A stretch of DNA of 31,025 nucleotides. Source: a virus (taxonomy: Duplodnaviria > Heunggongvirae > Uroviricota > Caudoviricetes). Below the pieces are notes generated by a model, which had not been told where the DNA came from, ran no database searches, and saw only the letters and a list, made by a program, of their open reading frames with translations. This document shows, piece after piece, positions 5,046 to 27,792 of the stretch. Numbering within the stretch: position 1 is the stretch's first letter; each line of letters begins with the position of its first letter. The DNA lies in the IMG/VR virus record IMGVR_UViG_2802429232_000001, positions 1-31,025 of that record. One strand, 5' to 3'. The translations under genes were made by a program, and so were the position numbers.

Positions 5046-5062
5046 GTTCAAAAAATCCTTGT

Positions 5063-5656
5063 TTACATTAGCTGGTCAATCGTGATTGAAGAACTCACAA
5101 CCTGTGAGCCAACCAGAATTTCCTCGCCATAGATAAGTTGTACTGGGTTGCCCTGGTTTTCTGTATTTTGAGGGCCGTCGAAATAATAAGAGTTCGAGTT
5201 ATCTGCCTGTCTCACACTTTCGTTAGTGGCTTGCGGCGATATGATTTGTGATATGCCGCCCATCATCAGTGACAAACCGAGAGGTGCTAAAGCAGGCATC
5301 ACTACCGCCGATACAACCAACAAAGCGGCCCCTACTACCGTCTGAAACCACCCAAAAGCAGATCCACCGCTTCCTCGCGGAACAGGTGTAATGCGGATTT
5401 TGGCAATGTTGTCAGACTGCCCCATCATCTGATATTCACTTTCGTCAACAGACCACTTGTGGCCCTGTTTATTGGTGATCTGGATGTGGTAACTGTCATA
5501 GGTTTTGATATTGCGCTTCATCCATGCTTTAAACCCAGGCTTGTTGGCTTCAATTAAATCCAGAGCCTGTTTTGTATTGCGCACCTTTAGATGCCAGTGG
5601 CGACCAAAATGTTTAGCCATAGGTCCGCCAAGCTGCACATGAACTAACTCAGACAC
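5063..5656 (-). CDS. I: Tail assembly protein (lambda I-like)
   Basis: ORF track (197 aa). Sits between K and J and overlaps K's end as in lambda. Gly/Ala-rich hydrophobic central segment and C-terminal LIYGEEILVGSQVVS resemble lambda I (VLYGEMRVGSRVVS). Confidence 0.7.
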   Translation of the reverse strand: MSELVHVQLGGPMAKHFGRHWHLKVRNTKQALDLIEANKPGFKAWMKRNIKTYDSYHIQITNKQGHKWSVDESEYQMMGQSDNIAKIRITPVPRGSGGSAFGWFQTVVGAALLVVSAVVMPALAPLGLSLMMGGISQIISPQATNESVRQADNSNSYYFDGPQNTENQGNPVQLIYGEEILVGSQVVSSSITIDQLM

Positions 5657-6441
5657 GTCTCATCTCCCTTGAGCAAGTCTCTGTGACGCAAGTGATGCGT
5701 CGTATGTTTCTGATACATTCCGCCGTAATAAGCACGACAACTAAGACGGTCGATCTGGTGATGAAGAATCATTCCATCGCCGATATAAACCGCGCAGTGA
5801 TCTGGCATTTTCCCGTATTGAATAAAGAAGACGTCCCCACGTTGAGGCTCTGTTCCAGGCGCAAGCCGTACCAACCCTTCGTTTCGGTAGTTCTGGTCGA
5901 GAATGTCGTTATCGCCGGTGTACCACGATGGAATATGCAGGTGTGCGTTCGGGTTAAGCTCGACGTTAAACTCACGCTTCAAATAGTCCCGACACAACAT
6001 CCAGCAATCGAATACGCCAAATACATACGGTCTACCCAGGTATGGCATTTCGAAACCATCAGGTGTGATCACATTCATCTCGCTAAAATGGAAAGGGGCA
6101 TCTCCCTCAACATTCTTGCGAATAGCCAGAATCATCCACGGAACTTCCGTCGCTTCACAGCCTGCACGATCGGCATCAGATGCTTCTGCTGATTCATCAG
6201 TATGTGAATGCCAGATTGCGATTACGTCACCTGCATCCTCTGCCGCTATAATGTCGTCAACGTGCATTACAAAAGTGTTCTGCGGGTTCTCCGAAACATT
6301 TCGCGCTTCCATAAAGCGATATTTGTCGCCATTAGTTCTCACCAGAAAGCCACACGCTTCATTAGGGTAGCGATTTATGGCGCAGAGATAGATTTGCTGC
6401 ATAACATCAGAGCCAAGCTCAGGGATTGCTTTATTACCCAT
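5644..6441 (-). CDS. K: Tail tip assembly protein (lambda K-like) with MPN/JAMM and NlpC/P60 domains
   Basis: ORF track 5644..6468; start moved to second Met (MGNKAIPELG) at 6441, preceded by GGAG. Exact JAMM motif HxHx7Sx2D in IWHSHTDESAEASDAD; Cys (FDCWMLCRDY) and downstream His consistent with NlpC/P60. Confidence 0.8.
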   Translation of the reverse strand: MGNKAIPELGSDVMQQIYLCAINRYPNEACGFLVRTNGDKYRFMEARNVSENPQNTFVMHVDDIIAAEDAGDVIAIWHSHTDESAEASDADRAGCEATEVPWMILAIRKNVEGDAPFHFSEMNVITPDGFEMPYLGRPYVFGVFDCWMLCRDYLKREFNVELNPNAHLHIPSWYTGDNDILDQNYRNEGLVRLAPGTEPQRGDVFFIQYGKMPDHCAVYIGDGMILHHQIDRLSCRAYYGGMYQKHTTHHLRHRDLLKGDETCLS

Positions 6442-7132
6442 ATCGCGTAGCTCCAATAAACCCGCCAAAATGGATCACTCCGTTGGCAAAATAATTCCGA
6501 CGCGCATTACAGGCGTCATAACGTTTTGTGCAGTAATCAGCACCAGACATAGACGTCTGCTGGTTATTTTTGTCGAAATATGGACCGGTATAGCCGCATT
6601 CTGGCCCTCGGTATTTCCACGGGCAGGTGTTTTTAATGATCTGACGATACGGCAGTTGCACCCCCATCAAATCGAACACACTGGACAACTCAAACTCGAC
6701 AACCTGATGAGTTTCGAGCGTTTTCTGTTCGATAAACCACATTTCATCCGGGAAATGTTGGTTTGGATCTGCTGTTGGATTACCGTCTTTAAAATTAACG
6801 GCATCGAGGAAGCGAGCCAGCGTCATCTTGCGAATAATGCGGCAGCCAACAAGATCGTCGTTTGCCTGAACTTCCGCAGAGACGGTTCCGGCAAAGTTCG
6901 ATACCTGAATTTTTGGACGTGGCAACGTTCCCTGGCCCGTTTTGTCAAAGCCTGATGCTTTGATTGGCCACGGCTCGTATGTCACTCCTTGCCAGACGAC
7001 TGGTTGCATCAGTTCGTTTGTTCCGGCGTGGAAGAATAGCTTCCCCCCTGAAGTTGTGTTCGACATATCCAGTACGAACAACTCAATGAGTGCAGAGGGA
7101 GATAAGCTCTGAATATCAGCTTTAATTCCCAT
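6434..7132 (-). CDS. L: Tail tip protein (lambda L-like) with C-terminal Cys cluster
   Basis: ORF track 6434..7165; start moved to Met12 (MGIKADIQS) at 7132, preceded by AAGGATGAAACA. Blocks VWQGVTYEPWPIKASGF, ARFLDAVNF and the four-Cys C-terminus (CPW..ECGY..C..C) match lambda L as recalled. Confidence 0.85.
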   Translation of the reverse strand: MGIKADIQSLSPSALIELFVLDMSNTTSGGKLFFHAGTNELMQPVVWQGVTYEPWPIKASGFDKTGQGTLPRPKIQVSNFAGTVSAEVQANDDLVGCRIIRKMTLARFLDAVNFKDGNPTADPNQHFPDEMWFIEQKTLETHQVVEFELSSVFDLMGVQLPYRQIIKNTCPWKYRGPECGYTGPYFDKNNQQTSMSGADYCTKRYDACNARRNYFANGVIHFGGFIGATRYG

Positions 7133-7214
7133 TGTTTCATCCTTGAAATAAGTAGGCGCTAACATCCTGTCAGCGCCACAATGATAGTAAATCAGTACTT
7201 ACTTATCCAGATGC

Positions 7215-7550
7215 TTAAGCCTCAAATACTTGTCTGAATGTAGCAGTTAAGACACAGTACCCCTGATATCGCTTGACCGTATGACTGTCACATACAACTA
7301 CAATCTGCTTGCCTCTTGGATTAACCCAATAGAACGATTCAACGCCTGATCGCTCAGTCAGGAAGTCATCGATTGCATTAATTTCGTTGTATGATCTGGT
7401 AAAGGTTAACGACCATTCTTCTTTAATACGATTAAGACCTTGAGCCTGTCGCTGCTCGTAGTCATCACCAAAATTAAGTACCGTTACATTCGGTTTTACG
7501 CTTTTTTCAGATTCGTAATCTGGATACCAATTAAACGTTTGTCTTTCCAT
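7215..7550 (-). CDS. M: Minor tail protein (lambda M-like)
   Basis: ORF track (111 aa). Immediately downstream of tape measure; FGDDYEQRQAQGLN resembles lambda M FGDGYSQRAPAGLN. Confidence 0.8.
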   Translation of the reverse strand: MERQTFNWYPDYESEKSVKPNVTVLNFGDDYEQRQAQGLNRIKEEWSLTFTRSYNEINAIDDFLTERSGVESFYWVNPRGKQIVVVCDSHTVKRYQGYCVLTATFRQVFEA

Positions 7551-7565
7551 CTCACATCCTTGTGA

Positions 7566-7587
7566 GACTGCCCCCGTCGGGGCAGTC
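7566..7587 (-). other. GC-rich hairpin in the tape measure-M spacer
   Basis: GACTGCCCC-cgtc-GGGGCAGTC; no U-run follows, and the M RBS (AAGGA) lies just downstream. Confidence 0.4.
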
Positions 7588-7592
7588 GATAG

Positions 7593-10500
7593 TTAGTTAC
7601 GTTGAGTGTTTGGGTTGAGTGATCCGCCAGGGCGTTTTTCTTGAGCGATAGTCTCAAGTACGACGGCTTTCACCCGCTGAGCTGCATTATTCCATATGCT
7701 TTCTGTATCGCCGGATTCAGTTGTGCTACCGTCACTATGGACGTTGATCTCAATTGATACAGGAGAAAGAACATTTCCGCCTCCACTCATACCATCGGTA
7801 CTGAGCGTTACAGGGATTGTTCGGCCATCAGGCAATGGAACATACGCCTCATTCATAGAACCTTCCCCAAACAACGCTAATTGAGGTGAGTTAGCAATAC
7901 CGCCTTTCTGGTATGCCCGGAGCGGGATCACGCCGTCTTTTCCGAATATTCCTCCATTTGCAAACTTCGGGATTGCAGGAATGCCTTTAGTTCCGTCAGC
8001 CACACTGCTAGTTGCGGTTTTAGCAGAGCTTGATGTCACACTGTCGAAACCACCACCTGCCCATACTGAAACCAACCCAGATGCAACTGTCGCGCCGAAA
8101 TTCAACCACTTATTACCAGAGCCGGAAGCATTAGCTCCAAGCATTGCAAACGCGGCAGACAGAGCACCGGTAACAGAGCTGAGGTTCTGCATCGAGAAGA
8201 TGGAATCCTTCACTGCTTTTGTCTCAGCATCTTTGGCTTCGGTGCTATCAAATAGTCCTGATACCCAGCTACCAATCGCATTTGTTGCTGTGCCAATTGC
8301 GCTGGTGGTCTGCTGTGTCGTTTGCCCCAATCCAGTTACCGAACTGGACGTCTCCTTCGTGGCTTCTCCTACCGACTTGTCGCCGTTAACAGTGTTGCCC
8401 ATTCGTACCTCTTGATTGGCAACGGCGGAAGCAACCCCGGTCAGCAAATTACCACTCTGTGAACTACCAGCTGCGGTGGTTCCCATCCCCAACATGTTCA
8501 TTAGAGGCAGCGTGATCTGCGACTTCACGACCATATTGGTGATATCTTTCAAAATGGACTGAGATAGGCTGGAGAAGCTCATCTTCCCGTTAATAACGAA
8601 ATCAGTCAGGACATCAGTTAAGCCACTAAACAAATCAGTCCAGGTGCTTTCGATCTGCTCTGCCAGGTTTTCGTATTCCAGTGCTAACTTCTGCGTCGCA
8701 GTCCCTGTCTCTTTAATGAGCGCGGTATTGCCAGCAGCAATAAGTTGATTGATTTTCTTTGTATAAAGCGCCACGACTTTAGGATCAGACGCCTTATCAC
8801 GAAGTTCTATCAACGCTTTGAGATTGCGGTTGTAGGTGTCTTCGAAATCAGCAACTTTCTCTTCGCGAGACGGCGTATAGCCAGCACTAATAATGGAATC
8901 CGCCTCCGGTGCCCAAGTGGAGATCATCTGCTCAACATTGCGGCGATTAAACATCTCGCGATATTCAGGTGTCGCATTTTTGAGGTCTTCAAGACGTTTT
9001 TTCGCCTTGTCGATCATCTCTTGAGTGATGAACTCGTTAGGAACCGCATTAGCCAAATCTGTCAGCGATTTCGTTGTATCGCGAAGAGACTGATCAAACG
9101 ATACCGTAGCCTTAGAGCTTTCACCCATTTGCCCCATAAGCTGATCGGCTTTGTCCAGAGCCTTCTGGTATCCGGCTGCCAGTTTCTGTTGCGCTGCCTG
9201 TTCTTTCTTTGCTGCTCTCTCGGCTGCTTTTGCGGTACGGTTTGCTGCCTTATCCGCTGCTTCAGCATCAAGTTCACGAGCTTTTGTCAGAGTCTTAATT
9301 ACTGCGATGCGGTCATTTTCTGACAACTGCTCTAATTTCACATCACCGTAAATTTTCTTCTGTCTTAATTGCTCCTTGAGTTGTCGAGGCCCAACAACAG
9401 GTTGACCTTGTAAGTCGTATAATGCGGAACCATCTAGATTGACTCTTTGATACCTTTTAGAGTCCATCTGCTGTTTCCAAAAACCAGTCATAGTTTTGGA
9501 ATTAGCATCAACTGGTGTGCTTGAAAACTCACCAATTTTACCGCCATTAATTGACTTAAGACCGCTACCAGCTTTCACACTAAGGCTGGTCGTAACATTT
9601 TCGATCTGCTCTTCTATCGATTTCTTGTTAGCTATCTGAGCATCAATCCGAGCCTGAATTTCTTTGAGCTGTTCAGTATTATTTGCCGTTGTAGCCTTTT
9701 TAAAATCCTCATTTAAGTTAACAAGATCATTAAGAATACCCTTCTGAATATCCTGATAACCTTTGAGTTTTTGAAGATCCGCCTCAGAATATAAACGCTC
9801 GATTTTTGCGTTATTCGCGCCTCTTAATTGACTCTTCTCGTGATCAGATAGGTCAGTTCTGCCGGCAATCTCCTCATTCTTCTTGTTAAGCTGCTCCAAC
9901 TCCTTAGCATTTGCAACCAAAGAGACGTTTGCCTTCTGGTTTACTTCGGCAATTGCATCGTCTAAACCTTTGGTGACGCTTTTATAGACGCTCTTCTCAA
10001 TGCCTTCGCCAAGTGTTTTAGCTATGTCATCGCGTTCTTTCTTTAGGTTTTCAAGTTGTTGTTTGGTGCTGTTAACGTCAACATCTGTTTCATAAACCAG
10101 CCCATCTCTTGAAACCTGTGATCGTTTACCTGTTGTTACCTCCTTCTCTAGCTTGCTGATCTGACGATCTTTCTCTCGCTTTGCAGACTCCAGCATCGCG
10201 CGATCTGCCGCCGTCATTGCTTCAGGTATCTCTCTGACTTTATTTACGACATCCTCAATTTTTCCTCTGAGTACCTGCATGTAAAAAATCAGCGATGACA
10301 CTGCTGTTACTGCTGCGGTAAAAGCAAAACCTATCGGATTTGCGGCCATGAACGCAACCAATCCACTGAACGCATTACGAATAGCGAAGATTAAAGATGG
10401 TATAGGTGATAGCCCCATGCTCGCTGCCCGATTAAATCGTTTAACGGCTGTGGAAGCGAGATTAAATGTCCCTTGTATAGTGGTAGACATATTCGCAAAA

Positions 10501-12122
10501 GCAGACGTCATCTGACTGGCAGTTCCTATAACTCCAGAAATACCAGCCTTAAGTAGCTTAAAGGCCACCATAGCAGCTACTACCTTGCCGAAGGCAATGA
10601 CCAGTTCTTGATTTTTAATCAGCCACATTGCCAAATCACGCAAGCCATCCACAGCCGTTGTCAATCCACTTCCCAATGAGTGAGCAAAAGACATACCATC
10701 TGTGCTATTCATCAAAGAGGTAAGTTCTTTCATCCCCTCTTTTAAAGAGGACAAATAACCAGCTTGGCCAACTTTATCCGCAAATAGCGTAAAGGCCGTC
10801 TGCATCTGCGCCAACGTACCGGTAAAAGTGTTCATCATTTCGGACGCAGCCCCCTCGTTCTGCATCTTCAACTCTTTGAACATAAGTGCCAGTGCGTTTT
10901 TGGCTTCTACCGTTCCAGATGCTACAGCTTTAGTTAACTCGCCCATTGTCAGACCAGCAGCCTTGGCCATTGCGTTCATTGCTGTCGGAATCGCCTCACC
11001 TAATTGCTGGCGAAGCTCTTCCATCGATACAACACCCTTACCAGACATCTGCTGAACAGCAATGGATGCACGCTTCAGAAGTTCGCTATCCCCACCAAAA
11101 CGAGCAACGGAATCGACAAGAGTCTTTAAAGAGCCATCTGTTGGATCTAATCCTGCTGAGCGGAATTTAACGAACGAATCGGTTAGAGCTTCCATCGCAA
11201 ATGGGGCGCTCTTAGCCATATCCACGATGTACTTCATATCATCAGCGGCAGCCTGGCCAGGGTTGGACTTCTCCTTATTCAACCCTCGAAGCATCACCCG
11301 CATACGTTCCATTTCGGCCGCAGCTTCAACAATAGGCTTCTGCCACCCAAACATGATGTCAGTAACCGTTCTGGCTGCATCTCCGATCTCGCCAAGCAGG
11401 AAAATGTTGCCACGAAGGCCAGAGAACATACCTCCTTCGTTACTTTTACCGCTATGGCCAGAAGCGCCGCTACGCCGCCCGCTACCACCATCGCCACTTC
11501 CAGATGTACGAACGCGTACCGGCTTGCTAATCAGTTGCTGACGTCCGATAACTTCGTCCATCTGCTCACGAACCTTTTTCAGTCCCTCGGCAGCCTGACT
11601 CGTTGTGACACCCCAATTACTGAGTCGCTTCGTCGTGGTATTAAGGCGCGTATTCATGCCACTCACGGACGCAGAGGCTTCTTTGACCTCCGTACCAAAG
11701 CGGCTTGCGCTTTTGCTTGCATAGGTCGCCCAATCAGAGAAATCATTTAGCTCTGATTGCACTTTTCGTAATGACGCGGTGAGTTTATCTACTGAAGAAG
11801 TTGTCGTATCGACGCGCTCAATTAGGGCTTTAAGACCAGAATTGAGGCTGGTGATGTTGCCACGCATTTTACGCGTAGCATCTGAAGCAAGCTCAAAACC
11901 GGCAGCTACATCCTGTAGTTTATCTGCCGTAGAATCGAGCTTGCTTTCCAGAACGCCAATGATACGGGCGACCGAACCCAAAGAGCGTTCAAAGGTTTGG
12001 ATTTTTTGAGCAGGCTTTGTTACCTGCTCACCAAATCGAGTAAGCAGTTTCCCCGCACGATCGATTGACGCTGTAAACTGTTTGTCTTCCAGCGACAGGA
12101 TAAACTCTACGTTTTGTGACAT
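7593..12122 (-). CDS. Tail tape measure protein (~1509 aa)
   Basis: ORF track 7593..12143 uses a TTG overlapping the T frame; start moved to ATG at 12122 (MSQNVEF). Coiled-coil N-terminal third, hydrophobic Gly/Ala-rich central segments, position between G-T and M. Confidence 0.85.
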   Translation of the reverse strand: MSQNVEFILSLEDKQFTASIDRAGKLLTRFGEQVTKPAQKIQTFERSLGSVARIIGVLESKLDSTADKLQDVAAGFELASDATRKMRGNITSLNSGLKALIERVDTTTSSVDKLTASLRKVQSELNDFSDWATYASKSASRFGTEVKEASASVSGMNTRLNTTTKRLSNWGVTTSQAAEGLKKVREQMDEVIGRQQLISKPVRVRTSGSGDGGSGRRSGASGHSGKSNEGGMFSGLRGNIFLLGEIGDAARTVTDIMFGWQKPIVEAAAEMERMRVMLRGLNKEKSNPGQAAADDMKYIVDMAKSAPFAMEALTDSFVKFRSAGLDPTDGSLKTLVDSVARFGGDSELLKRASIAVQQMSGKGVVSMEELRQQLGEAIPTAMNAMAKAAGLTMGELTKAVASGTVEAKNALALMFKELKMQNEGAASEMMNTFTGTLAQMQTAFTLFADKVGQAGYLSSLKEGMKELTSLMNSTDGMSFAHSLGSGLTTAVDGLRDLAMWLIKNQELVIAFGKVVAAMVAFKLLKAGISGVIGTASQMTSAFANMSTTIQGTFNLASTAVKRFNRAASMGLSPIPSLIFAIRNAFSGLVAFMAANPIGFAFTAAVTAVSSLIFYMQVLRGKIEDVVNKVREIPEAMTAADRAMLESAKREKDRQISKLEKEVTTGKRSQVSRDGLVYETDVDVNSTKQQLENLKKERDDIAKTLGEGIEKSVYKSVTKGLDDAIAEVNQKANVSLVANAKELEQLNKKNEEIAGRTDLSDHEKSQLRGANNAKIERLYSEADLQKLKGYQDIQKGILNDLVNLNEDFKKATTANNTEQLKEIQARIDAQIANKKSIEEQIENVTTSLSVKAGSGLKSINGGKIGEFSSTPVDANSKTMTGFWKQQMDSKRYQRVNLDGSALYDLQGQPVVGPRQLKEQLRQKKIYGDVKLEQLSENDRIAVIKTLTKARELDAEAADKAANRTAKAAERAAKKEQAAQQKLAAGYQKALDKADQLMGQMGESSKATVSFDQSLRDTTKSLTDLANAVPNEFITQEMIDKAKKRLEDLKNATPEYREMFNRRNVEQMISTWAPEADSIISAGYTPSREEKVADFEDTYNRNLKALIELRDKASDPKVVALYTKKINQLIAAGNTALIKETGTATQKLALEYENLAEQIESTWTDLFSGLTDVLTDFVINGKMSFSSLSQSILKDITNMVVKSQITLPLMNMLGMGTTAAGSSQSGNLLTGVASAVANQEVRMGNTVNGDKSVGEATKETSSSVTGLGQTTQQTTSAIGTATNAIGSWVSGLFDSTEAKDAETKAVKDSIFSMQNLSSVTGALSAAFAMLGANASGSGNKWLNFGATVASGLVSVWAGGGFDSVTSSSAKTATSSVADGTKGIPAIPKFANGGIFGKDGVIPLRAYQKGGIANSPQLALFGEGSMNEAYVPLPDGRTIPVTLSTDGMSGGGNVLSPVSIEINVHSDGSTTESGDTESIWNNAAQRVKAVVLETIAQEKRPGGSLNPNTQRN

Positions 12123-19062: not shown

Positions 19063-20637
19063 TCACTCGTTCTCTTGAGTAGATGAGTCCCCATTCCCTC
19101 GGGGTTGATCTTGCCCGCTTTCTTGGGCTGCACCACGATCATAAGTAAGTACTGACTTATTTTCAAGGGTATTTAGATCATTTTTTGGAGGAAAATTCAA
19201 GAGATCTTTATCAAATTCCTTTTTCATCGCCTCAGTAATGTTCGGGAAAATCTTCTCAATAAGCATTTCCATCTGGTGACGACGTACAGAGTCCGGTGCC
19301 TGAAGTAATGACAGTTTCTCGGCAACAGAAAATTCATCAGTAAGGCCACGAATATCGAAACTTTCTGGATACGCAATTAAAGAGTGGTCTTCGTCCAGAT
19401 CTACCCCCATCCATTTCGCAACCAGTAGCATGATTTGGCGTTCAGCCCTTTCCAGACGCTCTGCTTTTGTGACAAGCAAGCTATTTACACGCTGGAAGTC
19501 ATACATTTTTGCGGCACCAGATGAATTATCGATTCCCTGTGCGTTGTCCTGCTTCGTTCGCTCACCAGCTACACCAACTGAATGGTAGATTTCGTTAATC
19601 ACCGTCTTAATCGTAGTGATGATCATCTGAGCTTGTTTCGGGTCTGGTGACAGATAAAACGGCTGGTTTCCACCTTCAGAATCGTAGGTGAAGACTCGCT
19701 TTGTGCCCATTTCAAGCACTTTAGTGTGGTTTTCATCACCAGGTAAAAGCGACTGTACCGGTATAGCCAACTGGCTAAATGTCTGATCCTGAATAATGGC
19801 ATCAAGGTTTGACAGATAGTTTGCAACCGCACGATCAAGATAAGCGATATCATCGATCAACGATGGGCTGAAATACGGTGATTCACTTTCTCCAATACAA
19901 TCAACAGGAAACACAGGAACTACGCCGAGATTATGCTCACCGCTATCCTCTAAAATAACTTTTGCCTGACGGCGACCTGCTCCACCAGCGCCCTTCTTCA
20001 CTTCCTCACGGAACAGATACCACTCGTTTTGTGTCCACAGACGATAACGTTGGTATTCCTGACCTGTAGAAGTAAAAGGATCTGCGTCATCACGAGCGAC
20101 TTCCACAATTAACGCCCACAACATATTCCCGTCGTCGTCCCATGCCACATCCAGCATTTGCTGAGGTGAAATCCAGTAGGCGTAGGCGCGAGCATCTTTC
20201 TTTTTCTCGTCAGCTACTGACTCAACATCACCACTCATCGTGCTATCGACAACAACCCATATGCGACCGTAAATAGACGACTGCAAATCAATAGCGGCCA
20301 TAAATGAGTCAATAGAGGCATTCTGGCGAGTCGCACGTTTCCAGAAATTGCGGATCTGCTCTGGTGCCTCTTCGATATTTCTATGAATGTCTTCTTTAAA
20401 GAGATATTTGTTGATGAGGTTTACCACCTCACGAGTGTGGTTGAAGCGATAAGCACGTTCAACTCGCTCCTTAAACTCCTGATCTCCCTCTTTAAAGTAA
20501 CGAAAGATATTGTCTGTAAACCAACCACGCCCGCCAGCGTAAGTGCTGGCGAGGAAGTCCCAATGTTCTTTTTTCTTTTCGTATTCCGGGTGGCGTCGCG
20601 CCACCAGATCCTTAATTTGTTTGTCGTTCAATTCCAT
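19063..20637 (-). CDS. Portal protein
   Basis: ORF track (524 aa); size and position immediately downstream of large terminase. Confidence 0.65.
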   Translation of the reverse strand: MELNDKQIKDLVARRHPEYEKKKEHWDFLASTYAGGRGWFTDNIFRYFKEGDQEFKERVERAYRFNHTREVVNLINKYLFKEDIHRNIEEAPEQIRNFWKRATRQNASIDSFMAAIDLQSSIYGRIWVVVDSTMSGDVESVADEKKKDARAYAYWISPQQMLDVAWDDDGNMLWALIVEVARDDADPFTSTGQEYQRYRLWTQNEWYLFREEVKKGAGGAGRRQAKVILEDSGEHNLGVVPVFPVDCIGESESPYFSPSLIDDIAYLDRAVANYLSNLDAIIQDQTFSQLAIPVQSLLPGDENHTKVLEMGTKRVFTYDSEGGNQPFYLSPDPKQAQMIITTIKTVINEIYHSVGVAGERTKQDNAQGIDNSSGAAKMYDFQRVNSLLVTKAERLERAERQIMLLVAKWMGVDLDEDHSLIAYPESFDIRGLTDEFSVAEKLSLLQAPDSVRRHQMEMLIEKIFPNITEAMKKEFDKDLLNFPPKNDLNTLENKSVLTYDRGAAQESGQDQPRGNGDSSTQENE

Positions 20638-20663
20638 TTGAATAACCTTAGATAATTACTTAC

Positions 20664-21920
20664 CTACCGAGAACCACCAAGAATAACACGGTTTTTGACT
20701 GGATACCTACGATGTACTGGATAGCCCAATGCGTCTGCACTATGCTCAATGCCACCTGTCTTATCCATATCTCGTGTTCCAGGCTTGTAGATGACTTTTT
20801 CCAGTGAATCAATCAAATGCTTGCACTTCGGATCGATATACAGCCGGATATCTCCAGATGCGGACATCAGCATTCGGTTAACAGCATTAACACGATCCGC
20901 AATTGGCGGGTGCTTTTTCGAATAATCGACACGTAAGAATCCCTTCTCTTTGAATATGTCTACGTCAGACTCCCCACGAGCATGTTGGCGATAAGCACCT
21001 GCCGGATCTGGAAATACCGTTACCTGTGATTTCCAGCGCCAGAAGCGTCTCTCAAGCTCATCACAAACTTCTGCCGTGTTAGAGGAAAAGAGCACCAATT
21101 CATCAATTGCCCATAGCTCACCATTTGGCTGAGGTTGCAAAATTACTGAAGACATCGGGTCAATGTTGAAGTCCTGCCCTACCCATATAGGCAACCGAGG
21201 GTTGAACTGAAGCGGTTTTACATGCACGTTACGATCGAACGGGTAGTAAACGCGCCCGGACATGTTCTCAAAGCTGGCCAGGTACTCCTGAGCGAACGAT
21301 TTGGGGTCCATATCGTTCTTAGCAGCTTCAATTTCCGCCGTAGGCACAAACGGAGAATCGGCAGTTACAAACTGCCAGCTCTTCCACTGTCCCTTTCTTT
21401 GCAGCTCTACGTTCTGGCCTATAGTCCACAGTTTGTGAAATTCCGAGAAGCCTTTTGGCGTACCAATGATCAGTGCACCGCCGCGTGTCGATGAAAGAGT
21501 AGGTCGTAACACCTTGTACCAGGTGTCAGCCTTCATATCCTGAAATTCATCAAGCACTACAAAATGCAACGCTACGCCGCGCAGAGTGTCAGGCTTATCA
21601 GCACCTTTGAGGGCGATCTCCGAACCGTTCTTCAACACGATTGTCATCGTGGTGTCGTTCTTTTTCCTAACCCACTTACGAGGCAGAACTTCCTGTAGAT
21701 CGTCCCACAAAATCTGGCGAGCCATCTGGTAAGTAGGAGCGACATACCAGACCCTTTGCTTTTTTTCCTTTGCCGCCGCACGAATAATAGTGGAGATCGA
21801 CAACCGGGATTTTCCCCAGCGTCGACCAGCACAAACAACTTTAAATCGATGCGGAGACTGGAAGACTTTCATCTGTCCAGAATGCAGTTGCACAAGACTG
21901 AGCGAGGACGGGATTGCCAT
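20664..21920 (-). CDS. Terminase large subunit
   Basis: ORF track (418 aa). Walker A-like VVCAGRRWGKSRLS, Walker B-like HFVVLDEFQD, acidic nuclease-domain motifs (VGQDFNIDPMS, FPDPAG). Start overlaps small-subunit stop by 1 nt (TAATG). Confidence 0.8.
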   Translation of the reverse strand: MAIPSSLSLVQLHSGQMKVFQSPHRFKVVCAGRRWGKSRLSISTIIRAAAKEKKQRVWYVAPTYQMARQILWDDLQEVLPRKWVRKKNDTTMTIVLKNGSEIALKGADKPDTLRGVALHFVVLDEFQDMKADTWYKVLRPTLSSTRGGALIIGTPKGFSEFHKLWTIGQNVELQRKGQWKSWQFVTADSPFVPTAEIEAAKNDMDPKSFAQEYLASFENMSGRVYYPFDRNVHVKPLQFNPRLPIWVGQDFNIDPMSSVILQPQPNGELWAIDELVLFSSNTAEVCDELERRFWRWKSQVTVFPDPAGAYRQHARGESDVDIFKEKGFLRVDYSKKHPPIADRVNAVNRMLMSASGDIRLYIDPKCKHLIDSLEKVIYKPGTRDMDKTGGIEHSADALGYPVHRRYPVKNRVILGGSR

Positions 21921-22552
21921 TATTCGTCCTCCCCTTCACTTCCATCATCTGTCGCATCAAATTCGCTTAGAGCTTCTTCTTCCAACGTCTCAAGCAATTC
22001 GTCATCGATGATTTCAGGCTCGTCGTCTTCCTGACGTAATTTCGCCACCTGGGAAGGCGTAAGCTCACCAAATACCAGGTTCGGAATTTCTTCCTCGTCA
22101 TTTTCCGCATGATCCATGCCCAATGCTTTGGACGAAACTTCAAAGCATTTTGCAAGGGTATTACTGGCTCTCTGTAAGCTCTTGAGAGAATCCTCAATCG
22201 CCCCTAAAGGCTTACCCTCACGTTTGGCCGTAGTGACTTCGACCATCACCATCTGCCCCAACGCATACGCCCAGCCGTCATAACGTGTACGACGTTCTTC
22301 TATCTTTTCCGCACGGGCTTTAGCGCGAAGCTCTGCGTCAGATTTAAGAGACTCACGAACCATCTTCCCAACAGAGTCCGCGCCTTTCTCTAATCCTCGC
22401 TTTTTGAAATGTCTGGAGAGTGTTTCACGACGAATGCCGTACTCTTCCTCCAGCTTTGAGAGTGTATATTCGCCTGACGTCCATTTGGCTTCAGCTTCGG
22501 CCCACTCCGCTGGTGTCAGGCGAGTTTTTACCTCGTCTTTTTCGACCGTCAT
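21920..22552 (-). CDS. Terminase small subunit (putative)
   Basis: ORF track (210 aa). N-terminal HTH-like region, very acidic C-terminus, AGAGGGA RBS, translationally coupled to the large subunit. Confidence 0.55.
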   Translation of the reverse strand: MTVEKDEVKTRLTPAEWAEAEAKWTSGEYTLSKLEEEYGIRRETLSRHFKKRGLEKGADSVGKMVRESLKSDAELRAKARAEKIEERRTRYDGWAYALGQMVMVEVTTAKREGKPLGAIEDSLKSLQRASNTLAKCFEVSSKALGMDHAENDEEEIPNLVFGELTPSQVAKLRQEDDEPEIIDDELLETLEEEALSEFDATDDGSEGEDE

Positions 22553-22747
22553 AGATCCCTCTAAAACACACAGAGCGCGTCCATGCGCTCTAAAACAACT
22601 TGTTTACTGCATCTGCTAACCAACTTGTTTTCTGGGGTGTTTAATTAGGTCTGGCATGTCTTACGAAGCCTGCTTCCGTATATATTTAATAAGTTACTTA
22701 TTATTTATATATACAGAAGCAGGTCTTTAAATAAGCTCCCAGACCGA
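22553..22747. promoter_or_regulatory. Highly structured 195-bp non-coding region upstream of small terminase: direct repeats, hairpin and a ~60-bp AT-rich imperfect palindrome (candidate cos/pac and/or late promoter)
   Basis: CTCTAAAACA twice (~22559 and ~22588); CAACTTGTTT twice (~22596 and ~22621); hairpin AGAGCGC-gtccat-GCGCTCT (~22572-22591); palindrome CCTGCTTC..TATATAT..AATAAGT-t-ACTTATT..TATATATA..GAAGCAGG (~22665-22727). Confidence 0.5.
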
Positions 22748-23014
22748 TTACATCACCAGTAACTTCGCTTTGGCTCGACCTAAAGTGGTTAACCCAAGAG
22801 TTCGGCGGTGATAGCGATTGTCACTGCGTTGGCGCGTATGCCCTTTCTCCACCAGCCCCTTTTTTATCAGAGCGCGAATTGAGAACTGGATACTTTGCTT
22901 GGTTGTCTTGTACGGCAAAACTTCAAGCAATTCGTCCAGGTCAAGTAGATGACCTCGCTCATAACCGAGATTGAGCGTTTTGATGATGTCCTTTTGTTTA
23001 TCGGTTAACGTCAT
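22748..23014 (-). CDS. Small winged-helix DNA-binding protein (putative)
   Basis: ORF track (88 aa); basic, helix-rich (SIQFSIRALIKKGLVEKG followed by a basic tail); last gene of the ParB/ATPase module. Confidence 0.4.
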   Translation of the reverse strand: MTLTDKQKDIIKTLNLGYERGHLLDLDELLEVLPYKTTKQSIQFSIRALIKKGLVEKGHTRQRSDNRYHRRTLGLTTLGRAKAKLLVM

Positions 23015-23023
23015 GGCAAATCC

Positions 23024-23923
23024 TTATGCCGGTAAAGCAATTTCTAACGGTTTATCCAAAGGTTGTTTGTCGAATGCCAGCAGTGGCAGCGTGTCAGGCA
23101 GTCGACGACCAAAGTCAGGGTTTCGATACACACCATACAACGGAGACGTAAAGCTCAGGTTGTGAATGTCCTTGAGCAGCTTCACAATGCTGGCCTCGTC
23201 CACCAGACTGTCGGCAATGTCCTGAATCGTCGTGCCACGATTCCGCCCAGCTTTTGCCAGGGAACTGTTCTTGTGGTAGTCCGCCACCAGATCACGCAGT
23301 GCACGGCGACGACGAGACTCGCTCATAGCGAACAACTCTTTGACGATCGCCTCGTTATCACCCGGGTCGGAGCGGAAATGGCGCTGGAACACACGCAGTG
23401 CACTTTCATAGCTCTTCGGTCGCTCAGGGCGGATGAACTTAAACCCTGCTTTCATGGCGAAGGGATTGTATTTGCTCATCGATGACTGGATCTCAATGAT
23501 TGGCCGGTCATGCATCCTGCTAACCAGGTTAATCATTCGATAAGAGACGCCTACGCCACGGTACTGAGTATCCACAACTGAGCGGCTGATCACCGCAAAG
23601 TTGTTATTCACGTACCGGCCCCAGTACTGGTTAGCCACGGTGGTATTGGTGGTTGGTTTCAACTTAGGAAACATGCGATGGCGAGGTGCCAGCAGAAGTT
23701 TCGGGTAAGCCATAACCACGACGCCCACCAGACGATCATCCAGTTCGCAGCGATAGTATGTTGGCGCGAAAGGTTTGCCGTCTGTTTTGTAGTGAAGCGA
23801 CTTAAGAGCGTGCCAGTCCTCTACAGTTCCCTTTGTGACAGTCATTCGCTCCAGAAAGTCCAGATGACGCGGAAACTCTTCAGGGCGGTAGCGTTTGATG
23901 ATGATATCTGCCATGTCGATCAC
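23024..23923 (-). CDS. Hypothetical protein with GNAT acyltransferase-like motif and Arg-rich C-terminal extension
   Basis: ORF track (299 aa). AVISRSVVDTQYRGVGVSYRMINLV matches GNAT motif A (R-x-x-G-x-G/A). Start overlaps upstream stop (ATGA). Confidence 0.4.
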   Translation of the reverse strand: MIDMADIIIKRYRPEEFPRHLDFLERMTVTKGTVEDWHALKSLHYKTDGKPFAPTYYRCELDDRLVGVVVMAYPKLLLAPRHRMFPKLKPTTNTTVANQYWGRYVNNNFAVISRSVVDTQYRGVGVSYRMINLVSRMHDRPIIEIQSSMSKYNPFAMKAGFKFIRPERPKSYESALRVFQRHFRSDPGDNEAIVKELFAMSESRRRRALRDLVADYHKNSSLAKAGRNRGTTIQDIADSLVDEASIVKLLKDIHNLSFTSPLYGVYRNPDFGRRLPDTLPLLAFDKQPLDKPLEIALPA

Positions 23924-24174
23924 CTGCGCTCGATATTGGCATTGATGAAATCCAGGCGAAGAGACTCCATCGCCCCTACCATGACATACGGGCGCCCGCC
24001 GTTATGCCAGCAATCAAGAACACTGCCGTCGTTGTTGATCATCAACAGCGCCAGGCTCTGGCTTTTTCCTTCTCTGGCGTGCTGAAGTGCTTCTTCCAGC
24101 AGGCGGATGACTTCCACGTTGTTGTTATCAGTCTCTTTCGATGGCTTCAGCTCTACGATCTTCAAATCAGGCAT
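23920..24174 (-). CDS. Hypothetical small protein (84 aa)
   Basis: ORF track; overlaps upstream gene end by 8 nt; part of the tightly coupled module. Confidence 0.4.
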   Translation of the reverse strand: MPDLKIVELKPSKETDNNNVEVIRLLEEALQHAREGKSQSLALLMINNDGSVLDCWHNGGRPYVMVGAMESLRLDFINANIERR

Positions 24175-24805
24175 ATTCCACCTTCACGCGTTCTTTGTAG
24201 TGCTTGGTGATCTGCATATCCGGGCGCAGCGCGTTCTTCAGGTCTTCGTGAGTCGTCGCCACCATTACCGTCGCACCAACCTTTCGAGCGGCACGCTGGA
24301 GGTTAGACGCCACAACCTGAGCGGTTACACGGTCTAGAACAGCGCCGAACTCGTCAGCAGCCCATACTTTAGCGCCTGACTCAATCAGTTTGGCAATCTT
24401 GAGACGATATTTCTGGCCGTCTGACATTTCAGAAGGCTTGCGAACAAACAGATATGCATCGTTCAGACCAGCCATAGATAACAACCCAAGCGCATCACTG
24501 GTCGTTTTGCCCAACTGATCGATGACGTTAACCTCATTATCGAAGGTAAAATCATCGATGGAGGCCACAGATAGCCCTTCATCCTTCATCTGGTGTTGCA
24601 GCTCGCGCAGCACAACGGATTTGCCGGAACCGGATTGGCCGGTAATGTACACCACATCGCCCTGCTTCACTTCCAGCTCCAGATTGTCGTAAAGCGTCCA
24701 CTCTTTTTCGTCCAGGCCAAGCCCGAACGACTCAGCGATTTCCAACGTGCGCGTGGTTTTATTTACGCGTGTCTGAAACGATACGTTGATGATGTATTTG
24801 CTCAT
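24167..24805 (-). CDS. Minimal ABC-type ATPase (nucleotide-binding domain only)
   Basis: ORF track (212 aa). Walker A GQSGSGKS, ABC signature-like MSDGQKYRL, Walker B KVWAADEFG, H-loop VATTHE. No membrane partner nearby. Start overlaps upstream stop (ATGA). Confidence 0.7.
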   Translation of the reverse strand: MSKYIINVSFQTRVNKTTRTLEIAESFGLGLDEKEWTLYDNLELEVKQGDVVYITGQSGSGKSVVLRELQHQMKDEGLSVASIDDFTFDNEVNVIDQLGKTTSDALGLLSMAGLNDAYLFVRKPSEMSDGQKYRLKIAKLIESGAKVWAADEFGAVLDRVTAQVVASNLQRAARKVGATVMVATTHEDLKNALRPDMQITKHYKERVKVEYA

Positions 24806-25470
24806 GCAGCCATCTCCCCGGAAGAGATCTTCTCCGCATATGCCACAAATGCGTCTACCCCGCTTTCTCCCGTCATTTCTTCCATGTGGGCAAGCAAATC
24901 ACCAACAACAATGGCAGAGCCAGCAGGGAGCGTTTTAAAGCCCAATACGTCGACAACACGTACTTCTTCCGCTGCAACTTCACGACTGATCTCGGTGTGT
25001 TCATCCTTCTGTCGTTTAGTTTCTTCGCCAAGATCGATAACTAGCGAGTCGGTGTCCATTTCTTCTGTCATACTGCCAACGAGAACATTCAACTCACGCT
25101 CTTCAAAGCCGAAAACCTCGATATCGTCCAGAACAAGCGACTCAAGCTCTTTCTGTAGCTTAATTGCATCGTAATCAATGCTGGCAAGTCGGTTATCTTC
25201 AAGGCGCTTCGCACGAACCTCGTCATCACTGAGATCATCGCGAACAATAACCGGTACGCGCTCAAGTCCAGCAAAAATTGCAGCCTCACGGCGGCCGTGG
25301 CCAGTAATAATTACGTCGTTCTTATCGACCGTAATTGGCTGGTCAAATCCGCGCTTTTTAATGGCTGCGGCTAGATCTCGGATCTGCTGTTCATCATGCT
25401 TTTTGGCATTCATCTCATAGGGAATAAGATCTGCCGGGTCGCGATATACGATTTCAAACTTTTTGGTCAT
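24802..25470 (-). CDS. ParB/Srx-fold N-terminal domain protein (second copy)
   Basis: ORF track 24802..25503; start moved to Met12 (MTKKFEIVY) at 25470, AAGGAG upstream, overlapping the upstream stop (TAATG). ParB-box-like ITGHGRREAA; acidic C-terminal half. Confidence 0.6.
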   Translation of the reverse strand: MTKKFEIVYRDPADLIPYEMNAKKHDEQQIRDLAAAIKKRGFDQPITVDKNDVIITGHGRREAAIFAGLERVPVIVRDDLSDDEVRAKRLEDNRLASIDYDAIKLQKELESLVLDDIEVFGFEERELNVLVGSMTEEMDTDSLVIDLGEETKRQKDEHTEISREVAAEEVRVVDVLGFKTLPAGSAIVVGDLLAHMEEMTGESGVDAFVAYAEKISSGEMAA

Positions 25471-26150
25471 TACATACGCTCCTTGTAGTAGTCGACCAGC
25501 CACACCAGAGCCTCACCAGCGTTCTCCATTTCATTACCGGTGTTAATAGCCTGCTCTTTGATGATGTTTTTTATGGTTTCTGCAACACGATCTGACGCAT
25601 CGAAAGTTACTTTGAAGCGCATGGTCTGATGTTCCGCACCCACACGTTCGGTTTTCTCTCGTTTGTCGGTATCGACAGGCTCATCACTACCACGAGACAA
25701 AGCCTCCAGTGCTTCAAGGTCGATTGCCGCCTCTTTTGCTAAAACCATCGAGATTTCGTCGTCATACGGGGCGATTTCAGACAGTTGATAGTCAAGTTCT
25801 GACTGAATTTCTTCAATGAAGCGTTGCAATGCGATTTGGTCGTCTTCACCGTATCGCTCGTTGTCCACCAGTGACATCTGTTTAGCTACGACATCGCTAA
25901 TTTTGCCCACAGAAAGCACCGGAACCGTTGAAATTCCTTGCTCAATAGCAGCACGCCAGCGATGTTCGCCGCCGAGGATTTCAAAAAATCCATCTTCAAG
26001 TTCACGAGCCAAAATTGGCTTAAAAAAGCCCAATTTTTCGATAGAACCTTTCAGTTTTTCAAAATTCTGCGCACCAACCGAATTGGTGTTCCAGGTATTC
26101 GGGCGAAGGTTGGCAACATCAACCTGCAAAATCGTGATTTTTACATCCAT
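25470..26150 (-). CDS. ParB/Srx-fold N-terminal domain protein (first copy)
   Basis: ORF track 25470..26168; Met1 (26168) or Met7 (26150) are both possible. ParB motif FEILGGEHRWRAA; acidic C-terminal half. Confidence 0.6.
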   Translation of the reverse strand: MDVKITILQVDVANLRPNTWNTNSVGAQNFEKLKGSIEKLGFFKPILARELEDGFFEILGGEHRWRAAIEQGISTVPVLSVGKISDVVAKQMSLVDNERYGEDDQIALQRFIEEIQSELDYQLSEIAPYDDEISMVLAKEAAIDLEALEALSRGSDEPVDTDKREKTERVGAEHQTMRFKVTFDASDRVAETIKNIIKEQAINTGNEMENAGEALVWLVDYYKERM

Positions 26151-26168
26151 TTTATTGCTACAATCCAT

Positions 26169-26232
26169 TAAGTAATCACTTACTTATTATAATAGCCAAA
26201 TAACATACAAAAGGCACTAAGGAAAGAGGTTT
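26169..26232. promoter_or_regulatory. Divergent intergenic region with inverted repeat TAAGTAA-tcac-TTACTTA and TATAAT-like element
   Basis: Only 64 bp separate the divergent gene starts. Inverted repeat at ~26169-26186; TATAAT at ~26188-26193, readable on both strands; no convincing -35. Strong SD AAGGAAAGAGG precedes the helicase ATG. Confidence 0.4.
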
Positions 26233-27792
26233 ATGACTGTTCGGATTGTATCTAACGCAGTAAATGCACTTATTTCTGGCGCAGATGACAAGGTAAAGCA
26301 ACTGGTGCAACAGATGTTGAGCTACGAAGTCGAGACTGGCGACTGGAAGGGCACAAGCACGATGTTCAACTGGAGTAAAAACTCGTTCCCTGCTGGCTTT
26401 GCCAAGCCTGTAGCGGCGAACTTGAACAAGGCGGGCATCAAATGTGTTCATATCCGCAAAGACAAAGCTCCGGCGCTTGGAAAGCCAAATCCGGCGGTCA
26501 ACCCATTCCCATACAATCCTGATTATGCATATCAGGATCAGACTGTGGAAACACTGGTTCGAGAGGGAATGATGATTGCGCAGATCGCTACTGGTGGCGG
26601 GAAATCTAATGTTGCCTGCAAAGCAGCTGCACGTATCGGTCGAATGACATTATTTTTAACAACCCGCTCTGTTCTGATGTTTCAGATGGCCGAAAACTTC
26701 CAGAGATCCATCGACTACCGCGCCGAAAATGGCGAACCGTGGTTAAAAGACCAAAAGGTTGGAGTCATTGGCTCGGGTGAGTTCCAGGTATCACGACATA
26801 TCAACGTCGCTACAGTTCAAACTCTGGCAAGTTTCCTTGAAGAACCACCACGCGATGCAACTCCAGATAAGAAGAGCTACCACCTCAAACGTCGGGACTT
26901 GGTGAAACGCTTCCTTTCAAGTGTCTCTCTTCTTATTCTGGAAGAGGCGCATGAGTCTTCAGGCTCTAATTTCTATGACATTGCCAGATTATGTGCGAAC
27001 GCAGACTATCGCCTGGCGCTTACGGCAACGCCGTTCATGAAGGATTCTACGGAAGCCAACATGCGTCTGATGGCAGTGGCCGGGCGAATTGAAATAAAAG
27101 TCACGGAAAAGTACCTGATTGATAGAGGCATTCTGGCAAAGCCATACTTCCTTTATCATAAAGTTGCCTACAAGCCGGACGAGGCCAGAATCAAGGCAGA
27201 ACTTGCCAACAAACACCTCAATTTTAGAGTAGGTATGAGCACTGCCTACCAAAAGGCTTATCAGTTGGGGATCGTGTATAATTTGGGACGTAATGAGGCC
27301 ATTGTTCGCGAAGCATTGCTCTATAAGCAACATTCTCTCAATTGTATGACTCTGGTTCGTCTTAAACGCCACGGGCAAATCCTGATGGAAATGATGAAAG
27401 AGTCCGGCCTTAGAGTTGACTTCATTTATGGGGAATCGAACCAGTCGACAAGGCAAGCAAAGCTGAACAGTTTAGCGTCTGGCGACATAGATGTTTTAAT
27501 AGGCTCGACTATTCTGGATGTCGGTGTTGATGTGCCAAGCGTTGGTGCGGTCATTCTTGCTGGTGGTGGGAAAGCAGAAGTTGAAATGAGACAACGTGTC
27601 GGTCGTGGCTTACGAGCCAAGAAGAATCAGGCAAACGTGTGTTTTATCACTGATTTCATTGACATTAGCAACAAATACCTGTTGTCTCACTCTTATGAGC
27701 GAAAACACATCATCGACACCACACCTGGCTTTGCAGAAGGTGTATTGCCTGTTGATGGCGCATTCGATTTTGGAGTTCTGAAACGAGATTAG
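26233..27792 (+). CDS. Superfamily 2 helicase (DEAD/DEAH-like, ResIII-type core)
   Basis: ORF track (519 aa). Motif I IATGGGKSN, motif II LILEEAHE, motif III LTATPF, motif VI QRVGRGLR. Confidence 0.8.
   Translation: MTVRIVSNAVNALISGADDKVKQLVQQMLSYEVETGDWKGTSTMFNWSKNSFPAGFAKPVAANLNKAGIKCVHIRKDKAPALGKPNPAVNPFPYNPDYAYQDQTVETLVREGMMIAQIATGGGKSNVACKAAARIGRMTLFLTTRSVLMFQMAENFQRSIDYRAENGEPWLKDQKVGVIGSGEFQVSRHINVATVQTLASFLEEPPRDATPDKKSYHLKRRDLVKRFLSSVSLLILEEAHESSGSNFYDIARLCANADYRLALTATPFMKDSTEANMRLMAVAGRIEIKVTEKYLIDRGILAKPYFLYHKVAYKPDEARIKAELANKHLNFRVGMSTAYQKAYQLGIVYNLGRNEAIVREALLYKQHSLNCMTLVRLKRHGQILMEMMKESGLRVDFIYGESNQSTRQAKLNSLASGDIDVLIGSTILDVGVDVPSVGAVILAGGGKAEVEMRQRVGRGLRAKKNQANVCFITDFIDISNKYLLSHSYERKHIIDTTPGFAEGVLPVDGAFDFGVLKRD

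Follow-up and report, generated by a model that had tools for sequence, protein, structure and literature searches.

We propose that the 195-bp non-coding spacer preceding a putative small terminase gene (terS) is a control region at the head of a packaging and virion operon, built from elements that are not specific to the terminase. We give this reading a probability of about 0.5. The window, by which we mean the whole 31,025-nucleotide stretch that was analysed, carries the spacer at 22553-22747 on the minus strand, between the stop codon of a gene for an 88-aa protein and the putative terS ATG. At the same even odds, the 100 bp nearest terS would combine a promoter box, an operator or leader motif and the leader terminator of a late operon. 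The initial annotation had put forward a packaging initiation site and named a late promoter or operator as the alternative. That alternative fits the terS-proximal 100 bp better than a cos site does, although no sigma-70 promoter passes a scan.

Read in gene sense, the spacer would open with a nested palindromic module of about 100 bp, one of three per genome, followed some 20 nt on by a conserved TAATTAAACACC box, the regular forerunner of the motif AAACAAnTTGTTT. Two copies of this 13-bp motif would come next, then a hairpin and U-run at which most transcripts would end, some 10 nt short of the terS ribosome-binding site, and finally terS itself. Transcription would start near 22633 and be gated at the operator motif. 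The genes terS, terL, portal and those beyond would be reached only on read-through of the leader terminator, and read-through or antitermination would lead to late expression. The layout of these elements, their conservation, the spread of the motif over the genome and the three palindromes were observed directly; promoter activity, terminator function and the proteins binding the spacer are all predictions from the sequence. The regulatory reading has the drawback that it must dismiss the end of the SSU5 record inside the palindrome as an assembly break, and it leaves the palindrome's own function unexplained.

Genomic setting of the spacer

The window belongs to the SSU5-like phage-plasmids, specifically to the 'Cyrano' type of E. 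coli pECOH89/pLF82, and its genes are on the minus strand. Near the spacer it is 98-99.9% identical to Escherichia phage-plasmids of the SSU5 group (CMS-2020a, PhiR41_1 and Cyrano, which is pLF82) and ~78-80% identical to Salmonella phage SSU5 and Klebsiella relatives. Phage-plasmids of this group are common in clinical Enterobacteriaceae and bear resistance genes, and the group takes in S. Typhi pHCM2 and much of Y. pestis pMT1. The spacer itself was matched in 798 plasmid records at identities of 72-100%, from Escherichia, Klebsiella, Salmonella, Yersinia, Enterobacter and other genera; S. Typhi pHCM2-type plasmids and Y. pestis pMT1 were among the matches, at ~83%. In the literature on SSU5-like phage-plasmids we found no published account of the packaging site or of late-gene control. 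As a feature the spacer is of an ordinary kind, and few details have been worked out for its family. Knowing the virion ends would predict the capacity for extra DNA, such as resistance cassettes, and the ability to transduce, while the 13-bp motif and the three palindromes offer testable handles on the switch from lysogeny to lysis.

With a GC content of 39%, against 46% for the window, the spacer interrupts a long run of co-directional genes. From the divergent ParB/helicase spacer (26169-26232) to the virion genes, no other sizeable gap occurs. As the initial annotation had it, the spacer lies immediately before the putative small terminase gene. In favour of that assignment, the gene product has the architecture of a small terminase and the gene overlaps that for the large terminase (TerL). 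On the minus strand, this putative terS (21920-22552, 210 aa) overlaps the start of TerL (20664-21920; Pfam Terminase_6N, Terminase_3 and Terminase_6C), which is followed by the portal gene from the ORF list (19063-20637). Two ABC-type ATPases and two proteins with a ParB N-terminal domain are encoded on the same strand, farther upstream of the 88-aa gene; the two ParB-type genes are 2-3.5 kb upstream.

Proteins encoded on either side

Identification of the 210-aa protein as the small terminase is reasonable, mainly from its position and its modelled architecture. Its AF2 model shows an N-terminal three-helix bundle (helix-turn-helix), two long helices and an acidic tail. The protein belongs to PHROG 867, which is annotated merely as 'DNA binding domain'; it had no match in Pfam and none among PDB sequences, and its fold matches are weak, with two of them to proteins annotated as small terminase. 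The terS ATG at 22552-22550 is preceded by the Shine-Dalgarno sequence AGAGGGA (22556-22562, minus strand), which is invariant in nine aligned relatives.

The closest solved relative of TerL is the P74-26-type TerL ATPase domain (4zni), and its distant relatives include T5-like and Jersey-like terminases. Phage nickie has the whole cassette in the order ParB, ABC, small protein, gap, 'TerS', TerL and portal. The nickie TerL and TerS are 56% and ~32% identical, respectively, to those of the window, and the gene in the position of the 88-aa gene encodes a protein that is 31% identical. The 88-aa protein (22748-23014, minus strand) is winged-helix-like according to its AF2 model and fold matches, which are to the N-terminal domains of LexA, DtxR and DnaD at probabilities of 0.9-0.99 with non-significant E-values. 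On the strength of this model, it is a candidate binder of the spacer elements.

A dispersed 13-bp motif

Two different 10-bp direct repeats, each said to occur twice in the spacer, are indeed all present. Repeat CTCTAAAACA lies at 22559 and 22588, and repeat CAACTTGTTT sits within longer 17-nt repeats at 22593-22609 and 22618-22634. Shuffled sequences seldom contain two such pairs of 10-mers in 195 bp (P ~0.001, 1000 dinucleotide shuffles). In gene sense, the repeat AACAACTTGTTT corresponds to a 13-bp palindrome, AAACAAGTTGTTT, whose general form is AAACAAnTTGTTT. The copy proximal to terS (AAACAAGTTGTTT) occupies 22593-22605 and the distal copy (AAACAAGTTGGTT) 22618-22630, both on the minus strand and 25 bp apart. 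Before the distal copy stands TAATTAAACACC-CCAGA, as elsewhere in the genome. Its conserved, -10-like box TAATTAAACACC, at 22636-22647 on the minus strand, was recognised in an alignment of 16 motif sites and is the putative promoter of the terS operon. The distal copy shows the genome-wide context of the motif exactly (CCTAATTAAACACCCCAGAAAACAAGTTGG).

Within the 31-kb window, the motif is confined to the terS spacer. We counted its occurrences in NZ_CP024271.1, a complete relative with the same spacer sequence (100% identity). Allowing one mismatch at most, AAACAAnTTGTTT occurs there at 16 sites per 100 kb, compared with 0.3 expected, and every one of the 16 is followed, 12-66 nt on, by a start codon of the same (plus) strand. 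Among the genes behind these sites are those for a ParA-like ATPase and a DnaB-like protein, nrdB and many small genes; a GATAAT or TAATTAAACACC box plus AGA precedes most sites.

These findings speak against the suggestion that the direct repeats are binding sites for the small terminase, as the motif recurs genome-wide before unrelated genes and the duplication is absent in Klebsiella. The Klebsiella relatives have one motif copy with a CTAATTAA box before it and lack the segment with the second copy. Because they are without one copy, the 'direct repeat' at terS appears as a lineage-specific duplication of 25 bp. The other repeat, CTCTAAAACA, consists of the tail of the proximal motif copy and, 29 nt on, of the T-run and ribosome-binding site; it is conserved just partly in other lineages.

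The motif at terS extends beyond the SSU5 group. In the homologous terS gap of nickie, the 10-mer ACAAGTTGTT is found as an inverted pair, and it occurs nowhere else in nickie's 112 kb. We estimated the chance of an exact 10-mer in this gap at <0.001, which argues that the motif at terS is ancient. It is probably bound by a conserved protein. Candidate binders are the 88-aa winged-helix-like protein and the helix-turn-helix of the 210-aa protein, and a helix-turn-helix protein encoded beside the integrase in NZ_CP024271.1 is a further candidate regulator. A distribution like that of the 13-bp motif is what an operator or conserved mRNA leader would show, rather than an element that a terminase recognises. 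The motif may be the operator of a dimeric DNA-binding regulator, or a 5' leader, common to at least 14 other genes, and its action could be on the transcript instead of as a DNA operator.

The operators of the phage P1 repressor C1 offer a close parallel. Both are short motifs found at many promoter-proximal positions (here 16 per 100 kb, 16/16 of the sites), including the head of the virion operon. The P1 C1 operator is a 17-bp asymmetric site, whereas the motif described here is a 13-bp palindrome with candidate binding proteins, and nickie, a virulent relative, has it solely in the terS gap.

Hairpin and putative leader before terS

Between the motif copies and terS lies the hairpin that had been described with a 7-bp stem; we found it with a stem of eight pairs. 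This G+C-rich hairpin at 22571-22592 (minus strand), located with a terminator scan, has five G-C pairs among the eight and a 6-nt loop. On the coding strand it reads TAGAGCGC-ATGGAC-GCGCTCTG and is followed directly by the T-run TGTGTTTTAG at 22561-22570 (minus strand), which ends about 10 nt before the terS ATG. Intrinsic terminators have this arrangement, a G+C-rich stem-loop with a U-run after it on the coding strand. The hairpin's strength is moderate, and the scan gave one match per 800 bp, equal to the expectation from shuffles.

The stem is kept and the loop varies among relatives from E. coli, Salmonella, Yersinia, Enterobacter and Klebsiella. In the S. Anatum plasmid pSAN1-1735, the stem has one compensatory change from G-C to A-T and a wobble. 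It is the structure rather than the sequence of the hairpin that is conserved among relatives, as judged from few informative stem changes. In nickie this position is taken by a 9-bp G+C-rich hairpin of unrelated sequence, with TATTTTTCG behind it. The simplest reading is that the hairpin may act as a leader terminator before the packaging operon.

Upstream of the hairpin, a scan of 22300-23100 for the sigma-70 consensus returned no full promoter, and the -35 region is poor; the TAATTAAACACC box may nonetheless serve as the promoter of the terS operon, judging from its recurrence before the motif. The resulting layout resembles the PR'-leader-tR' region of lambda, on which Q acts: a promoter-like box, a short leader and a terminator-like hairpin before a very long late operon, with the position of the hairpin here conserved in a distant relative. 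It differs in that the hairpin here is ~10 nt from the terS ribosome-binding site, in that no Q-like antiterminator was identified, and in that both promoter and terminator are predicted.

A palindromic module in three copies

The terS-distal part of the spacer contains the AT-rich imperfect palindrome of ~60 bp that the initial annotation had noticed. It measures 55 bp (22669-22723), with 17-nt arms (22669-22685 and 22707-22723) that are 94% complementary and a 21-nt spacer (22686-22706). Its central 33 bp (22679-22711) have a GC content of 6%. The palindrome is nested in outer arms, GGTCTGG and CCAGACC (22636-22654 and 22739-22757); the outer arm GGTCTGGGAG at 22736-22745 (minus strand) pairs with CCAGACC at 22648-22654. 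As single-stranded DNA, the nested unit of 122 nt has a predicted folding energy of -26.4 kcal/mol (z = -8.1), and none of 200 shuffles was as stable. The longest exact inverted repeat of the spacer was not unusual compared with shuffles, and the above-chance signal of symmetry stems from the long imperfect palindrome.

The arm sequence did not recur elsewhere in the 31-kb window. The complete relative NZ_CP024271.1 contains three palindromes. Copy 1 (13.1 kb) is the one upstream of terS. Copy 2 (46.3 kb; 46270-46330) lies in a divergent intergenic region upstream of genes for a DnaB-like helicase and a primase, and copy 3 (92.6 kb; 92586-92644) directly follows the dam methylase gene; they are 33 and 79 kb downstream of copy 1, respectively. 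The same three contexts were found in dozens of IMG/VR contigs. In two plasmids, pLAO59 and pYLPI6a, only the non-terminase copies were matched; one of the two, a deletion derivative of 51.6 kb from Cronobacter, has neither terS nor terL annotated. Motifs of the TCTGGG type border every copy on one side, and motifs of the CCCAGA type border it on the opposite side. These hexamers occur six times in the 31-kb window, and two of them flank the palindrome (22631 and 22738).

Conservation is uneven within the palindrome. Apart from a single changed base in one Klebsiella plasmid, the terS-side half of copy 1, ACTTATTAAATATATACGGAAGCAGG, is the same across genera; the other arm changes, and does so without compensation. 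A nearly invariant half facing an uncompensated arm favours recognition of the DNA by a protein over a selected hairpin, and the place of copy 2 between divergent genes disfavours a role as terminator. On these two grounds, uncompensated arm change and the divergent genes around copy 2, we discarded the idea that the palindrome works as an RNA hairpin. An Rfam scan of 22300-23100 (E <= 1) gave merely spurious matches of miRNA hairpins to the palindrome. The palindrome may be a site of packaging or processing, a binding site resembling an origin or a centromere, or a neutral repeat.

Record ends and a possible packaging terminus

A repeat-rich spacer beside a terminase gene does not by itself make a cos site. 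The linear record of SSU5 (JQ965645) starts with AATATATACGGAAGCAGG and ends with GTGACTTATTA. BLAST coordinates and the end sequences place its ends at 22686/22687 of the window, one base into the 21-nt spacer of the palindrome and beside the terS-side arm. The two ends, when joined, give the plasmid sequence with nothing lost or gained. The Cyrano record ends at 22685/22686. It is the re-annotated plasmid pLF82, whose authors compare pLF82 with SSU5; we infer that Cyrano was re-cut to match SSU5 and is not independent evidence.

One explanation of the SSU5 end is that concatemers are cleaved by the terminase within copy 1, where the terS-side arm meets the palindrome spacer (22686/22687), which we regard as possible but hold only tentatively. 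The virion chromosome would then start 133 bp before terS and be packaged rightward through terS. A cohesive end is possible, and the boundary of a long direct terminal repeat (DTR) is likelier for this terminase family; elements unique to copy 1 would confer the specificity that copies 2 and 3 lack. Such a terminus is compatible with the regulatory reading. It would account for a record that ends at the boundary between arm and spacer and joins seamlessly into the plasmid. SSU5 gene 001 is annotated just as 'DNA-binding protein', which makes a deliberate cut to start at the terminase unlikely. The most conserved block of the spacer brackets 22686/22687, and the place and orientation relative to terS are the customary layout of cos and pac sites.

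The same record end may have another source. Three draft or metagenome contigs (L045, L128 and L129) end inside palindrome copies 2 and 3, and two more (L144 and L155) end in the palindrome spacer. Since contigs break within copies 2 and 3, assembly alone can produce a record that ends in the palindrome, and where a GenBank record stops within a palindrome is weak evidence. A scan of IMG/VR and metagenome sequences with the arm sequence returned no contig starting at the arm boundary where SSU5 is cut, and we found no report of SSU5 termini in the literature. Further arguments against a terminus at copy 1 are the two additional palindromes per genome, the single primary record that ends here (Cyrano being derived from it), the starts of the PhiR41_1 and Nican01 records at gene starts, and the nickie terS gap, which has no comparable large palindrome. 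The SSU5 record also has neither the terminal duplication nor the missing bases expected of end-repaired cohesive ends. For the palindrome as cleavage site, which the initial annotation had suggested, the SSU5 record end stands in favour, and the three copies per genome and the assembly breaks at copies 2 and 3 stand against.

The analogy with lambda that underlay this suggestion fails on uniqueness, on the type of terminase and on the nature of the repeats. As in the lambda cos region (cosQ-cosN-cosB), a non-coding segment lies directly upstream of the small terminase gene (Nu1 in lambda), with a partly symmetric element and then repeats between this element and the gene, and one phage record is linearised inside the symmetric element. 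A lambda-type cos, however, is a single cleavage site per genome, whereas the symmetric element here is present in three copies, as counted in NZ_CP024271.1. Lambda-type cos is served by a GpA/Nu1-type terminase, while the TerL here is Terminase_6N/Terminase_3-like with a Terminase_6C match, and a related phage is reported to have a long DTR rather than cos. Finally, where lambda has site-specific terminase-binding repeats (the R sites of cosB), the R-site-like repeats here are found genome-wide.

The boundary of a long DTR, as in T5 and as reported for Nican01, fits better than a lambda-like cos. The TerL here is near that of nickie and distantly T5-like, the genome is that of a siphovirus of ~105 kb, and a fixed end at the palindrome would suit a repeat boundary. 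T5 differs in having its terminase genes away from the genome end. The fixed ends reported for Nican01, a Nickievirus, count in favour of a terminus, together with the 56% identity to the TerL of nickie, a phage of the same genus, and the distant T5-like relatives, and make a fixed virion end plausible for this terminase family. Nican01 was classified as 'DTR (long)' by PhageTerm (PMC11256456), and its record has been re-cut at the TerL ATG. Another tree puts a Nickievirus TerL among 3' cos phages (PMC8537276).

All three palindromes might be processing sites that form hairpins or cruciforms, with copy 1 serving as the fixed end of the terminase or the boundary of a long terminal repeat; we consider this decidedly unlikely. 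Copies 2 and 3 would be spared because they are without the terS-proximal recognition elements, or would be replication or organising sites. The proposed hairpin intermediate in T7 concatemer processing provides a parallel. If true, packaging, replication and late transcription would be tied together by one sequence module in a family that is widespread in the clinic.

Other explanations for the palindromes

The three nested palindromes, with their TCTGGG/CCCAGA arrays, might be dispersed sites that load a DNA-organising phage protein, the candidate binders being the two ParB-like proteins or the 88-aa winged-helix protein. They would be extra centromeres, lytic replication origins or chromosome-organising sites, and the location of copy 1 at terS would be incidental. 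Although we judge this explanation unlikely, several observations agree with it. All three copies are intergenic and conserved across genera, copy 2 occupies a divergent promoter region upstream of the helicase and primase genes, and an AT-rich core with short flanking repeats at approximately helical spacing is reminiscent of origins and centromeres. Two proteins with ParB N-terminal domains and the winged-helix protein are, moreover, encoded immediately upstream. Four centromere palindromes are dispersed over the phage-plasmid N15 and influence its late gene expression as well, and its SopB sites are likewise few, large and scattered, with some near lytic or late genes and ParB-family genes in the same genome; their sequence is unrelated, and binding by ParB here is putative. 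Against this explanation, nickie has the ParB/ABC/winged-helix cassette without a large palindrome, and three origins or centromeres are without direct support. The palindrome is also the same across replicon types (IncFIB and rep_cluster_488), which disfavours a tie to any one plasmid maintenance system.

A functionless repeat is a very improbable source of the palindromes. Here a MITE-like module with outer inverted repeats GGTCTGGGAG and CTCCCAGACC would have landed in three intergenic places and been selfish or neutral since. The nested terminal inverted repeats, the length of ~100 bp and the intergenic positions have the look of such an element, and one relative has a 31-bp stretch (AAGTAACTTATTAAATATATACGGAAGCAGG) that copies 1 and 2 share without change. 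Many relatives, however, have the palindrome at these three positions, with copy 1 in five genera, so any mobility is not recent. One half of the palindrome is nearly invariant while the neighbouring non-coding DNA diverges, and no target-site duplication is evident. Nor did the palindrome have matches outside SSU5-like elements in the phage collection searched.

Several known types of site were rejected by eye, on spacing or sequence: a LexA box, a loxP/dif-type recombinase site, a Tus Ter site and the N15 telomere. Concerted evolution of the copies was likewise set aside, being inconsistent across contigs. As to orientation, the three copies are co-oriented in NZ_CP024271.1, which in other lineages apparently does not extend to copy 3.

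The gene neighbourhood of the terminase in a virulent relative

The gene order of window positions 19063-27792, from a temperate SSU5-like phage-plasmid, is the same as that of positions 1624-11081 in the virulent Pseudomonas phage nickie. From a helicase on the opposite strand, this cassette runs through two ParB-like proteins, an ABC ATPase, a small protein, a second ABC ATPase and a small winged-helix protein to a gap, which is followed by the HTH protein and putative small terminase TerS, the large terminase TerL and the portal protein. ParB-like and ABC ATPase genes are placed directly ahead of the terminase in both genomes. The two TerL proteins share 56% identity, and the remainder of the nickie genome is also mostly colinear with the SSU5-like element. 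The 88-aa protein next to the gap (22748-23014, minus strand) belongs to PHROG 900, and its structural model shows a winged-helix DNA-binding domain whose basic wing is disordered; the counterpart at the same position in nickie is 31% identical.

The first ParB-like gene and the DEAD-box helicase gene diverge from a 64-bp spacer that contains an inverted repeat, TAAGTAATCACTTACTTA (26169-26186), similar to the centre, AATAAGTAACTTATT, of the 55-bp palindrome upstream of terS. The two could have one binding protein in common, or their likeness could be due to chance in AT-rich DNA.

A palindromic motif upstream of genes

Across the complete relative NZ_CP024271.1, every site of the 13-bp palindromic motif AAACAAnTTGTTT lies 12-66 nt 5' of a start codon (positions 1309, 1686, 2170, 3073, 3837, 13180, 13205, 43955, 47192, 60984, 73391, 84832, 95052, 95782, 96496 and 99402). 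A terminator-like hairpin and a GATAAT/TAATTAAACACC box often lie ahead of these sites. In SSU5-like elements the motif appears to be either an operator shared by a whole regulon or a conserved 5' leader.

In the predicted terS leader RNA (22553-22650, minus strand), base pairing of AAAACAA with UUGUUUU joins the two motif copies directly beside the terminator hairpin (z = -2.9). This predicted pairing could be an alternative structure or a mere by-product of the palindromic motif.

Conservation of the spacer in other plasmids

The complete spacer, with palindrome, motifs and hairpin, is kept at ~83% identity in the plague pMT1-type and typhoid pHCM2-type plasmids. The genes beside it are intact in the annotated Y. 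pestis pMT1-type record; the S. Typhi record carries no annotation. The 51.6-kb Cronobacter sakazakii plasmid pCsaCS931a appears to have arisen from an SSU5-like element by deletion. Its annotation contains few virion genes and neither terS nor terL, and it retains the third copy of the palindrome, adjoined by an extended TCTGG-type repeat array.
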